40,489 bases of DNA from a virus. Taxonomy: Duplodnaviria > Heunggongvirae > Uroviricota > Caudoviricetes. Both the position numbers and the translations under genes were made by a program. A model generated the notes under the pieces. The model searched no databases and had not been told where the DNA came from. It saw only the letters and a program-made list of their open reading frames with translations. Shown here one piece after another: positions 23,804-33,505 of this stretch. The stretch's first letter is position 1. Each line of letters starts with the position of its first letter. The DNA lies in IMG/VR virus record IMGVR_UViG_2693429662_000008, one strand, 5' to 3'.

Positions 23804-23832
23804 TAAAAAAACCGGCATCAAGATGCCGGTTT
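23804..23832 (-). terminator. Rho-independent terminator downstream of the acyltransferase gene
   Basis: Hairpin CCGGCAT / ATGCCGG with a 4-nt loop, followed on the minus strand by a run of seven or eight T. Confidence 0.65.
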
Positions 23833-29271: not shown

Positions 29272-29781
29272 TCAAATCAGACCAAACGATGCGCCAATAC
29301 CGCTCATGGTATCGACCACGCTAGACATAGCAGGATTAGTCTGCAGACGCGCATGCAGCGCCAGAGCCGACAATGACAACATGCGAATACCAGAGTTAAC
29401 GCTTTCAATCATGTTGTGCTTACGGGCAGTGGTCAGACGCTCATCAGATACCGCACCGCTCGCCAGTTCGCCGAGTTCACGCATTGCGCGCATGACATAA
29501 GACTGCAATTTGTCTTTAGCCAACTCATTAACCGGTACGCATGGCAGGCAATGAATCTGCGCAAGAAAACCATCAACGAGGGTTGAGTCTTCTGTCAGGT
29601 CAGTCAGTAGCCACAATTCAGGCGGCGTAAACTGGTGAGGCTGTTCCGGGTTGAGCTTGTTGCGTAACGTCTGAACATTCATACCCGCGCGCTCGGCCAG
29701 CTTCGCCATATTGTGACGCTGCGCAAAAGCCCGGCACGCTTCGTCATAGTGGGGATGTTTGGAAATCTGAAAATCAAACAT
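29272..29781 (-). CDS. cII: CII-type lysogeny establishment activator (phage 186 CII homologue)
   Basis: 169 aa beginning MFDFQISKHPHYDEACRAFAQRHNMAKLAERAGMNVQTLRNKL (helix-turn-helix), matching 186 CII as I recall it; follows apl. Confidence 0.85.
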   Translation of the reverse strand: MFDFQISKHPHYDEACRAFAQRHNMAKLAERAGMNVQTLRNKLNPEQPHQFTPPELWLLTDLTEDSTLVDGFLAQIHCLPCVPVNELAKDKLQSYVMRAMRELGELASGAVSDERLTTARKHNMIESVNSGIRMLSLSALALHARLQTNPAMSSVVDTMSGIGASFGLI

Positions 29782-29811
29782 GTTGCATCCTTACAATTCA
29801 CATAAAGTGAA

Positions 29812-30075
29812 TTAAGCGCCGATGACGAGTTGAAAACGGGAATGACCCAACGCCTTACGCAACTGCTCTTCTTTCCAGCGGGCGTAATAAATACGAATTG
29901 GGCCACCTGCTTTCTTGCAGCCTTTACGTATGGTGCGGGGTTCAATTGGTACACAAGGGTTGTCGCCGGTTGTCCAGCGGTAAGCGGTGCGTTCAGAAAC
30001 ACCCTCAAGCTCTGCAAATTGTTGCAGAGTAACGATAGGTGCAGGCACTTTGATGATTGCGATTTCAGAAGCCAT
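29812..30075 (-). CDS. apl: Apl excisionase / lytic-promoter repressor (186 Apl, Cox analogue)
   Basis: 87 aa from the ATG at 30075 (MASEIAIIKVPAPIVTLQQFAELEGVSERTAYRW); first gene of the early lytic operon, divergent from cI. Confidence 0.85.
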   Translation of the reverse strand: MASEIAIIKVPAPIVTLQQFAELEGVSERTAYRWTTGDNPCVPIEPRTIRKGCKKAGGPIRIYYARWKEEQLRKALGHSRFQLVIGA

Positions 30076-30162
30076 GTTGCATGATTCCCATTTTGACAAT
30101 GTTTGTAATCAATGGCCTCTGTTTGCCAACTTCTGCCACTGATTGCCCGAATTAGCAACGAT

Positions 30163-30186
30163 ACTAATACTCGATTGAGTATTAGT
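30163..30186. promoter_or_regulatory. Perfect inverted repeat in the immunity switch, candidate CI operator overlapping the lytic promoter
   Basis: ACTAATACTC-GATT-GAGTATTAGT: 10-bp arms with perfect complementarity, 22 bp upstream of the cI start, in the 132-bp apl-cI intergenic region. Confidence 0.5.
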
Positions 30187-30207
30187 AAATACCCAAAGGA
30201 ATAAATT

Positions 30208-30783
30208 TTGATACTTGATACTCAGGTGAATAACGACGAGTTACTGGATAGAATCTGTCAAGTATATGGTTTTACTCAAAAAATCCAGCTAGCCCGGCAT
30301 TTCAATATTGCCGCCAGTTCCCTACAAAACCGCTACACGCGAGGCACTGTTTCTTATGATTTTGCCGTACAGTGCGCATTAGAAACCGGGGCAAGCCTAC
30401 TATGGCTTCTTACGGGGCAAGGCTCTCAATATGACGGCAAAAAGTCTCCAACGGATCCGAAAACGATAGACGCCTTCACTCTTAGTGATGGAAAGCTCGA
30501 AGAAAATTCACCATTGAGTATTGATGCTGGTTTCTTTAGTAAGCAAATGTCAAAAGGTATTGCTGTTCGCGCCGATGGAAAGCTGCACTTTATAGAACAA
30601 GATGCCTCACTTTCTGATGGCCTTTGGTTGGTTGATATTGAGGGGGCTACCAGCATCAGAGAATTGACGCTCCTACCCGGTAAAAAGTTACACGTTGCTG
30701 GCGGCAAAGTACCGTTTGAGTGCGGGATAGATGAGATAAAAACGATTGGCCGTGTAGTGGGTGTATACAGCGAGGTTAATTGA
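30208..30783 (+). CDS. cI: CI immunity repressor (186 CI type)
   Basis: 191 aa; helix-turn-helix region (QKIQLARHFNIAASSLQNRYTRG) and conserved C-terminal domain (LSDGLWLVDIEGATSIRELT...GRVVGVYSEVN). TTG start with AAAGGA 7 nt upstream; a GTG at 30226 is an alternative. Confidence 0.85.
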   Translation: MILDTQVNNDELLDRICQVYGFTQKIQLARHFNIAASSLQNRYTRGTVSYDFAVQCALETGASLLWLLTGQGSQYDGKKSPTDPKTIDAFTLSDGKLEENSPLSIDAGFFSKQMSKGIAVRADGKLHFIEQDASLSDGLWLVDIEGATSIRELTLLPGKKLHVAGGKVPFECGIDEIKTIGRVVGVYSEVN

Positions 30784-31797: not shown

Positions 31798-33261
31798 TCA
31801 TTTGCCGAGCATCTCTCTTAAATCTTGAGCCCAATGCGTATCGTCAGATTGGATCGTTCCTTCAACATCAGTAAGCAGTTTTTGCTCAAGAATTGTCTCG
31901 GCATTTCGACTCTGGCTAAAGTATCTTACCGTTTCGGCAAAGTCCCAATTCTCATCTGCAAGCAGGCGCGGCTGGAAAGAATGACAGTAGATTGCAGCTA
32001 TATCTTTACCCATAAAGTCAAAATCAGAAATCAATTCGCAAATTTTCATATCACGTGCAAATTCGATCTGAGGGCCATGCAAGGTTTCATATCCAATATG
32101 AATTATTGTTGATTCTCCAATCGGAGCCTGCTTTACAGCCTGAACAAGTACCCTTTTTATATCTTTTGCCTTTTTATCGACAGACTCATCAGCGAGACAA
32201 ATCCATTTTGCGCAGAAAGGCATTTCTATCTCATCAATGAATACATTTATTGTACTAAGTTCATCATTGCTAAAAGTGCATAACTTTGCGTTGCAAACCA
32301 TTGTATAACTTCCAAACGGGTCATACTGGTCATCTAATAAGGAATTTAATTGAGGAGAAGGATATTTCACATGCCACTTTCTTAAGTGGTTATCCACCCG
32401 TTCCATATCAATTAAGTTAGCCTGAACCAAAATATCATCGCTCTCACATACTGCAATCTTACCTTTCACAAGATGATCAGAGCCGTAAATTTTTGCTACA
32501 GCACCGAGAAACACATCGATACGCGTTTTTACTATTTCAGTTTTGAAAATCACATCAAAAAAAACTGGCTTATGGTATCGAGTAATCAATGGTCGAGCCA
32601 TTTCCCACCGCTTCAACCACTCCGCCCTTTCTTCTTCTGAGTACTGAGTCACCTTTGCTAATCGCTTGCACTCAACATAAAAAATATCAGTGCCTTTAAC
32701 AACTTTGAGGTCTGGTGTTTTATGAGCTCCTGTTTCTGGAATGAACTCAACTTCCCAGCCATTTTTCAAATAGCAGATAGCCACAACCAACTCAAACAAA
32801 ATGGAATCAGGCTGGTTGATTGTCTTAACAAGCAAGTCATTTAATTTGGATTCAATACCTTTGACCTGCTTCAACTTTTCGCTATGTTCACCGATAACTG
32901 CGAAAAAATGCCAAATTCTTGACGACTGAGCTGGCTCATCTACTGTTGGGCGATCAGCCAAAGATTCAACTAAGTACAAATACCATGCAATCCAGTCATC
33001 ATAGAATGCCAGGCGTGCATCTTTCTCATGGAAAGAAACGTCAGATTTTCCTGTGAAAAGGCGCTCCGACATTTCGCGGAAGTAAGCCAAAACCGCCCCA
33101 CGACGCTCAACCCATTTATCTTCACCCATTACATCAATAAACCAACGGTATGCTGTTTTTATCTCTTTGACTAATGGTGCATCATGTCTATGATTGAAGC
33201 GTTCAAAAAATGCAGCATACTCATCTTCAACACTCTGATTTTTGGTATTTTTTTCACCCAT
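31798..33261 (-). CDS. Cargo gene: large protein with a PD-(D/E)xK nuclease motif, candidate defence/abortive-infection nuclease
   Basis: 487 aa from the ATG at 33261 (AGGTGGA upstream; the ORF-track start at 33294 is an alternative). Motif FELVVAICYLKNGWEVEF...TPDLKVVKGTDIFYVECKRL fits the E...PD...(D/E)xK pattern. No P-loop seen. AT-rich; lies between int and the distal att core, convergent with int. Confidence 0.75.
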   Translation of the reverse strand: MGEKNTKNQSVEDEYAAFFERFNHRHDAPLVKEIKTAYRWFIDVMGEDKWVERRGAVLAYFREMSERLFTGKSDVSFHEKDARLAFYDDWIAWYLYLVESLADRPTVDEPAQSSRIWHFFAVIGEHSEKLKQVKGIESKLNDLLVKTINQPDSILFELVVAICYLKNGWEVEFIPETGAHKTPDLKVVKGTDIFYVECKRLAKVTQYSEEERAEWLKRWEMARPLITRYHKPVFFDVIFKTEIVKTRIDVFLGAVAKIYGSDHLVKGKIAVCESDDILVQANLIDMERVDNHLRKWHVKYPSPQLNSLLDDQYDPFGSYTMVCNAKLCTFSNDELSTINVFIDEIEMPFCAKWICLADESVDKKAKDIKRVLVQAVKQAPIGESTIIHIGYETLHGPQIEFARDMKICELISDFDFMGKDIAAIYCHSFQPRLLADENWDFAETVRYFSQSRNAETILEQKLLTDVEGTIQSDDTHWAQDLREMLGK

Positions 33262-33505
33262 CGTGATTCCACCTAGCTTATGCGGTTTATGCATTCAAGA
33301 TTAACTAACTTGCATGTTATCATTTTTGATATCAGGCAAGTGTTAGTCACGCTATAAAGGCTAGGTTGCCGTTTAAAGGCAATATGATAAGTGGCGATAA
33401 AGTGGCGGTAGAAATGGCTGATAATGTCTAATCACTGGCAAACGCTGGCCATTTATGTCAATGATAAATAAAGCAAACTATTGATTTTCGGTTGTTCAGG
33501 TAGGA

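Follow-up and report, generated by a model that had tools for sequence, protein, structure and literature searches.

The genetic switch of coliphage 186 is a leading model of transcriptional interference and of the repressor wheel, and has been studied in essentially one phage. In the model described for 186, CI bound at pR blocks the strong lytic promoter, relieves interference on the facing promoter pL and so keeps cI–int transcribed (PMC3675496). The CI wheel docks neighbouring weak sites together with the distal sites FL and FR, and CI also represses pB (PMC3675496). Seven Apl operators lie between pR and pL, and Apl recognizes direct repeats at 10–11 bp spacing, not inverted repeats (PMC7498355). 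In the C/Cox switch of P2 the early and lysogenic promoters also face each other, with a Cox/Apl-type factor binding between them (PMC3448106, PMC7498355). The P2 C repressor, however, is unrelated to CI and binds direct repeats, and P2 has no cII, whereas the locus analysed here combines a CI repressor with an inverted repeat. Immunity classes of 186-type CI proteins have been described as little studied (PMC3448106).

The stretch of DNA analysed here (the window, 40,489 nucleotides) is an E. coli prophage of the phage 186 type (Eganvirus). Its gene order, int–cI / apl–cII–fil–dhr, is that of 186, and two pieces that together make up 81% of the cII–apl–cI–int block matched coliphage 186 at 92% identity. 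The part of the block without a high-stringency match to 186, ~470 bp in length, comprises the switch core and the first part of cI. For this part, identity to any phage record in the collection was 67–71%, with none above ~71%, and of 5426 complete E. coli genomes, 37 had it at ≥99% identity, in each case on the chromosome. The genes that frame the locus, and the features at the other end of the prophage, are as follows.

29812–30075, minus strand: apl, excisionase and repressor of pR and pL; all 87 of 87 residues are identical to 186 Apl.
30208–30783, plus strand: cI repressor, 191 aa from a TTG start, recognition helix NIAASSLQNRY.
1808–3259: B and D genes, which with the tRNA mark the other prophage end.
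1575–1650: tRNA, anticodon CAT, just outside the B-gene end of the prophage.

The position of the tRNA is consistent with integration at a tRNA gene; 186 integrates at ileY. Directly beyond int, where 186 has the small orf69, the window carries a 498-aa ORF on the minus strand (31798–33294). Neither Pfam nor PADLOC gave a match for this ORF; it sits at the attachment-site end of the prophage and may be cargo.

The CI protein is 66% identical to 186 CI, the C-terminal half being far better conserved than the N-terminal half: 53 of the last 64 residues (128–191; 83%) are identical to the 186 CI C-terminal domain. Both Pfam domains of the family were found (Phage_CI_repr, 2e-23; Phage_CI_C, 4e-22), as were matches to the 186 CI structures PDB 2FJR (5e-82) and PDB 2FKD (8e-47). 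A TTG start had been proposed for cI from the sequence alone, and this start is supported by a well-placed ribosome-binding site:

30196–30200, plus strand: Shine–Dalgarno sequence AAGGA for cI, 7 nt upstream of the TTG at 30208.

The sequence AAAGGA is conserved in the window's operator group, as defined below, and PGAP used the same TTG in an identical E. coli prophage. Thirteen related loci keep the TTG, and in the alignment it falls on the ATG with which cI begins in 186 and the other classes. An in-frame GTG at 30226 has no spacer after the purine run.

The lytic operon begins with apl, which diverges from cI, and the gap between the two genes runs from 30076 to 30207 (132 bp), just as the sequence-only reading had placed it. 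The perfect inverted repeat reported within this gap at 30163–30186, ACTAATACTC-GATT-GAGTATTAGT, was recovered in a sequence search as a single match in the window (ACTAATACTCGATTGAGTATTAGT), with none other at up to three mismatches. A repeat finder added one more bp to each arm, giving arms of 11 nt and not 10, TACTAATACTC at 30162–30172 and GAGTATTAGTA at 30177–30187, which are 100% complementary and separated by a 4-nt loop. At a minimum arm length of 10 nt and a maximum loop of 8 nt, the whole 40.5-kb window contained just two inverted repeats. First-order Markov simulations of the window gave a mean of 0.34 such repeats per 40.5 kb, or ~0.001 per given 132-bp stretch; for a stretch of this length, the inverted repeat at 30162–30187 is about 1000-fold rarer than chance. 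A terminator reading of this repeat was rejected because its stem has few G–C pairs and there is no T-run; a terminator scan of 29700–30500 was also negative. The second long perfect repeat of the window, at 23809–23832 (AAACCGGCATC-AA-GATGCCGGTTT, 11-bp arms), is GC-rich and looks like a terminator stem.

Facing promoters as in 186 had been suggested for the locus, with two routes by which they might be located, and these gave different outcomes. Consensus prediction was silent: a sigma-70 scan of 29700–30500 reported no promoter at a threshold of 9/12 matches. Comparison with the annotated promoters of 186, in contrast, gave predicted positions for both pR and pL, and the promoters were accordingly assigned by homology and not by consensus scan. 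For this comparison the positions of pL, pR, the Apl sites and the CI sites of 186 were taken from GenBank record U32222.

30189–30184, minus strand: pR −35, TTTACT, of the lytic promoter that reads apl–cII leftwards; equals the annotated 186 pR −35 in sequence and position.
30166–30161, minus strand: pR −10, TAGTAT, at a 17-bp spacer; positional homologue of 186 TATATT.
30057–30062, plus strand: pL −35, TTGCGA, of the lysogenic promoter for cI–int, within the 5′ end of apl; equals the 186 pL −35.
30080–30085, plus strand: pL −10, CATGAT; equals the annotated 186 pL −10.

The hexamers lie at the homologous 186 positions, which would give facing promoters ~60 bp apart; the consensus scanner reported none. 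The silence of the scanner at pR is explained by its score: the homology-placed pR matches the consensus at 8/12 positions, below the cut-off of 9, as against 9/12 for 186 pR. The stretch around the pL −35 is 100% conserved with 186. The pR −35 is invariant across the window's own operator group, and the pR −10 reads TAGTAT or TAATAT among relatives. The two −10 hexamers are separated by 76 bp, as against 77 bp in 186, so that the predicted face-to-face geometry of pR and pL is retained. With both pL hexamers and the pR −35 identical to 186, and with the same layout recurring in related loci, facing promoters are a probable reading of the sequence.

The inverted repeat occupies the position at which 186 CI binds. 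It aligned without gaps on the central pR operator of 186, ATCTCCCAATTGAGAGAT, with which it shares its centre, and its dyad (30174|30175) coincides with the 186 dyad, ATCTCCCAA|TTGAGAGAT.

30162–30187, unstranded: predicted central CI operator of pR, TACTAATAC-TCGATTGA-GTATTAGTA, from ungapped alignment to 186.

In the 186 record this dyad sits in the middle of the feature annotated as '3 binding sites for CI repressor; locus of vir mutations; repression of pR'. The repeat overlaps the pR −10 by five bases and the −35 by four; from these hexamer positions and the alignment of the dyads, it follows that the repeat fills the pR spacer. The conserved core of the operator has 9-bp arms and an 8-bp centre, the arms reaching 11 bp in the window variant, and the half-sites GTATTA lie at positions 5–10 from the dyad. 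The suggestion that the repeat would suit a dimeric repressor is thus favoured by comparison with the mapped 186 operator, at whose position it lies, and by its recurrence in relatives. The 132-bp interval is very probably the pR–pL switch of a 186-type E. coli prophage, with the repeat as its principal CI operator.

The operators that flank the central site of pR in 186 were less apparent. At ~21–22 bp on either side, a half-site AATAC (30188–30192) fits a site centred 22 bp to the right; on the left, nothing convincing was found in comparison with 186 and the window group. A clear second palindrome at +22 bp was present in some of the other classes (loci L030 and L033, for example).

CI relatives were sought in one genome per species, and 37 loci were collected from other Enterobacterales (Enterobacter, Pantoea, Yersinia, Serratia, Citrobacter, Erwinia, Xenorhabdus and others). 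Automatic placement of the dyad was 1–3 bases off, or wrong, in ~10 loci, and was corrected by eye. Most loci with an intact region upstream of cI carried an inverted repeat ~33 bp upstream of the cI start, flanked by hexamers at fixed offsets from the dyad: TTTACT, TTGACT, TTGACC or TTTACA on one side, and TAGTAT, TAATAT, TATATT, TAGGAT or TATGTT on the other. The pR half-site covaried with the CI recognition helix across the 37 loci and 186, in a raw comparison uncorrected for kinship. The three pairings, with half-sites given as positions 5–9 from the dyad, were:

Helix IAAS[ST]LQNRY: half-site G[C/T]ATT; includes the window (GTATT).
Helix IASSSLSNRY: half-site GAGAT; 186 and close relatives.
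Helix IASSSLANRY: half-site GAGTT; loci L023, L028 and L040.

Within the window's class (14 sequences, CI 76–100% identical) the arms TACTAATAC and GTATTAGTA were nearly invariant, while the central 8 bp varied (TCGATTGA, CCAATTGA, CCAAATGA, TCAATTGG). One of these centres, CCAATTGA, is that of 186, which indicates that the 186 geometry is used and that specificity lies in the outer bases. Read outward from the dyad, the half-site is TTGAGAGATA in 186 and TTGAGTATTA here. Membership of 186's own immunity class would call for the same half-sites and the same recognition helix as 186, and the window differs from 186 in both. Since the half-site shifts together with the recognition helix, the window represents a separate operator class inside the same architecture, and this class is probably heteroimmune to 186, judging from the sequence comparison. 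Perfect 11-bp arms are peculiar to the window variant: the inner pair was broken in 5 of 11 distinct relatives, so the perfection of the arms carries no demonstrated function.

The helix class of the window is shared by phages EtG (Erwinia) and BIS20 (Salmonella) and by the Enterobacter prophages L004–L014. They resemble the window in the half-site core (G[C/T]ATT at positions 5–9), in the arrangement of the promoters and in having B-type sites at FR, FL and pB, but they differ in the outer and inner operator bases, the CI N-terminal arm and the Apl repeats. A locus from Kluyvera cryocrescens (L027) has the recognition helix of 186, yet its operator arms read TACTTC...GAAGTA, as against TATCTC...GAGATA. 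This change, ~42 to 23 bp upstream of cI, is symmetric and two-sided, and occurs without a change in the helix.

A perfect repeat upstream of a coding sequence could also act mainly as RNA, as a hairpin in the pL leader that affects the stability or translation of cI mRNA, in place of an operator role or besides it. The repeat does lie inside the inferred pL transcript, ~70 nt past the inferred pL start and 9 nt before the cI Shine–Dalgarno sequence, and the leader (30092–30230) was predicted to fold with the 11-bp stem intact at −33.7 kcal/mol (z = −3.5 versus shuffles). A hairpin is, however, the expected by-product of any dyad-symmetric operator. The 14 same-class sequences showed no covariation beyond that of shuffles, 414 of 500 of which reached the observed score; the only double change among these sequences was a single cell, and several substitutions gave A–C mismatches (L004, L008). 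In the other classes the repeat holds its position relative to the pR hexamers and not to the structure around the start codon. Rfam, searched with the switch region up to E = 1, returned nothing. A principal role as an RNA hairpin is thus unlikely.

It would seem very unlikely that the repeat arose by chance, is a relic or serves as a site for some other protein, such as a host factor or Apl. The region is AT-rich, and palindromes are somewhat commoner in such sequence; the Apl sites also abut the repeat on its left. Against this stand the expectation of ~0.001 such repeats per 132 bp, the positional homology with the CI binding site and vir locus of the 186 record, the conserved arms and variable centre among relatives, and the covariation of the half-site with the CI recognition helix. 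Apl itself reads direct repeats at 10–11 bp spacing and not inverted repeats (PMC7498355). The predicted Apl sites to the left of the repeat are as follows.

30093–30158, unstranded: seven predicted Apl recognition hexamers, TTGCCA-like and in 10-bp phase, from sequence and 186 position.
Predicted hexamers 1–4: TTGACA at 30093, TTGTAA at 30103, TGGCCT at 30113, TTGCCA at 30123.
Predicted hexamers 5–7: CTGCCA at 30133, TTGCCC at 30143, TTAGCA at 30152.

The position of the seven hexamers matches the feature '7 binding sites for Apl' in the 186 record. The TTGCCC noted at 30143–30148 as a candidate promoter hexamer is present, but as the sixth of the seven phased Apl repeats; it falls at ~+5 to +10 of pR and is part of neither mapped 186 promoter. 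Its use as the −35 of an extra rightward cI promoter, with AATACT (30166–30171) as −10 at 17-bp spacing, is scarcely credible: the pair scores 8/12, the same as the homology-placed pR, but the consensus scanner was silent there, the 186 record, in which cI is read from pL and pE, lists no promoter of this kind, the hexamer matches the 10-bp-phased Apl operators, and the region is part of CTGATTGCCCGAATT, which is invariant in the window group and also spans the predicted pR start.

Further predicted CI sites were located away from the apl–cI gap. The labels 'A-type' and 'B-type' are used here for CI operators as in the 186 literature; the operator classes of 186 were reportedly defined by Dodd & Egan (1996), Shearwin et al. 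(2002) and Pinkett et al. (2006). The B-type site is ATTCAC-N5-GTGAAT with a variable N5.

29796–29812, unstranded: FR, predicted distal CI operator, B-type, ATTCACATAAAGTGAAT; perfect match, equals the annotated 186 FR.
30473–30489, unstranded: FL, predicted distal CI operator, degenerate B-type, CTTCACTCTTAGTGATG; positional homologue of 186 FL.
30505–30522, unstranded: candidate FL′, AATTCACCATTGAGTATT; identical to the pR operator in its right half.
2040–2056, unstranded: predicted CI operator of pB, perfect B-type, ATTCACAAAAAGTGAAT; adjoins the B start codon.
2072–2088, unstranded: predicted CI operator of pB, imperfect B-type with 1–2 mismatches, ATTCACCATTTGAGAAC; over the likely −35.

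FR is centred 370.5 bp from the centre of the pR operator. FL lies within the cI codons F-T-L-S-D and matches the B-type consensus at all but 3 of 12 positions. Among the 31 loci that encode FTLS[ED], the Phe codon was TTC in 31/31 and the Ser codon AGT in 31/31, against gene backgrounds of 48% and 18%, while the Thr and Leu codons inside FL varied freely. The fixed TTC and AGT codons indicate that FL is under DNA-level selection in all classes. The candidate FL′ is centred 32.5 bp from FL, and several relatives carry AATAC-N8-GTAT(T/C) at this position; in 186 the putative FL′ lies 30.5 bp from FL (PMC3675496). FL′ overlaps conserved L-S-I codons, and the evidence for it is weaker for that reason. 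The segment 30505–30522 was also considered as the FL homologue, or as a hybrid of the two operator types, and was rejected in these roles when the family comparison put FL at 30473–30489.

The pB pair lies between D and B, upstream of the late activator gene B, and corresponds to the 186 annotation 'two CI binding sites for repression of pB'. A hybrid reading of the second pB site was rejected in favour of a B-type site with 1–2 mismatches. The order of the pB sites (2027–2095) is swapped relative to 186, EtG and BIS20, in which the perfect site is the distal one. The 49-bp pB block resembles a reverse-complemented 186 block in which the 15-bp spacer has been rewritten, and the rewritten spacer holds TAATAATACTCAG, a near copy of the pR repeat arm. 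A candidate pB on the minus strand reads TTCTCA-17-TATTAT.

The B-type site was found at FR, FL and pB whatever the class of the pR operator, EtG and BIS20 included. Because B-type sites are constant across classes, heteroimmune relatives may share the FR, FL and pB sites. The sequence-only reading had presented the switch as a compact 132-bp region. This proved too narrow: the pL −35 lies inside apl, and predicted CI sites occur ~300–370 bp to either side and at pB.

By analogy with 186, these features suggest how the switch would operate. A CI dimer would bind the two GTATTA half-sites at 30162–30187, and since this site occupies the pR spacer and reaches into both hexamers, RNA polymerase would be kept off pR while CI is bound. 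When free, pR would fire leftwards across the weak facing pL, ~61–62 bp away; with pR shut, interference would be relieved and more cI and int transcription would be expected from pL. The CI C-terminal domain would assemble dimers into a 14-mer wheel, as the high identity of this domain to 2FKD suggests for the CI of the window. Weaker neighbouring sites at two-turn spacing, together with FR, FL and FL′, could dock on the same wheel, and the two B-type sites at pB would keep the late activator gene B off. Apl would bind the seven phased hexamers and damp both promoters during induction. The comparison itself establishes the sequence features, their correspondence to the annotated 186 sites, their conservation and the covariation of half-site with helix; that CI of this prophage binds and represses, that the promoters interfere, that a wheel forms and that 186 is heteroimmune is inferred from the 186 system.

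Compared with 186, the locus retains an inverted-repeat operator centred in the pR spacer, the identical Apl, the seven Apl hexamers, FR, the FL codons and the two pB sites. It differs in the half-site (GTATTA here, GAGAT(A) in 186), in two positions of the recognition helix (NIAASSLQNRY here, DIASSSLSNRY in 186; AASSLQ versus ASSSLS) and in the pR −10 (TAGTAT versus TATATT). The cI gene of the window starts with TTG behind a good Shine–Dalgarno sequence, pR and pL stand 1 bp nearer to each other, flanking operators of pR could not be recognized and the pB site order is swapped. As far as its sites could be recognized, the prophage keeps the 186 architecture, with the pR half-site and two helix residues changed. 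It may well serve as a clean natural variant with which to ask which contacts set immunity specificity, and whether the same helix reads the B-type sites.

As judged by its sequence, the repeat is an ordinary, well-understood type of element that belongs to a distinct operator class of the 186-type switch. For annotation the result is routine: it assigns promoters, operators and a cI start in an ordinary temperate prophage. What the analysis adds is modest: across the family, a class-specific pR operator stands beside constant B-type sites. From this picture it is tempting, if still rather doubtful, to suppose that CI specificity in the 186 family is split: the pR repeat would be class-specific, track two helix residues and set immunity, and the B-type sites would be family-wide. 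If so, a resident prophage could bind FL, FR and pB of a superinfecting phage of another class, and could repress the B gene of that phage, or perturb its switch, without classical immunity. The phage of the window would be a natural test case, since it combines a non-186 pR operator with FR and pB sites identical to those of 186.

Identity to 186 was 67% over ~30093–30560, versus 92–100% in the flanks, and the divergent stretch begins just past the pL −10 and ends near cI codon 118. It looks like an exchanged immunity cassette. If so, the exchange would have covered pR with both the Apl and the CI operators, the part of cI that encodes the N-terminal domain and linker, and the FL and FL′ sites, with Apl itself unchanged.
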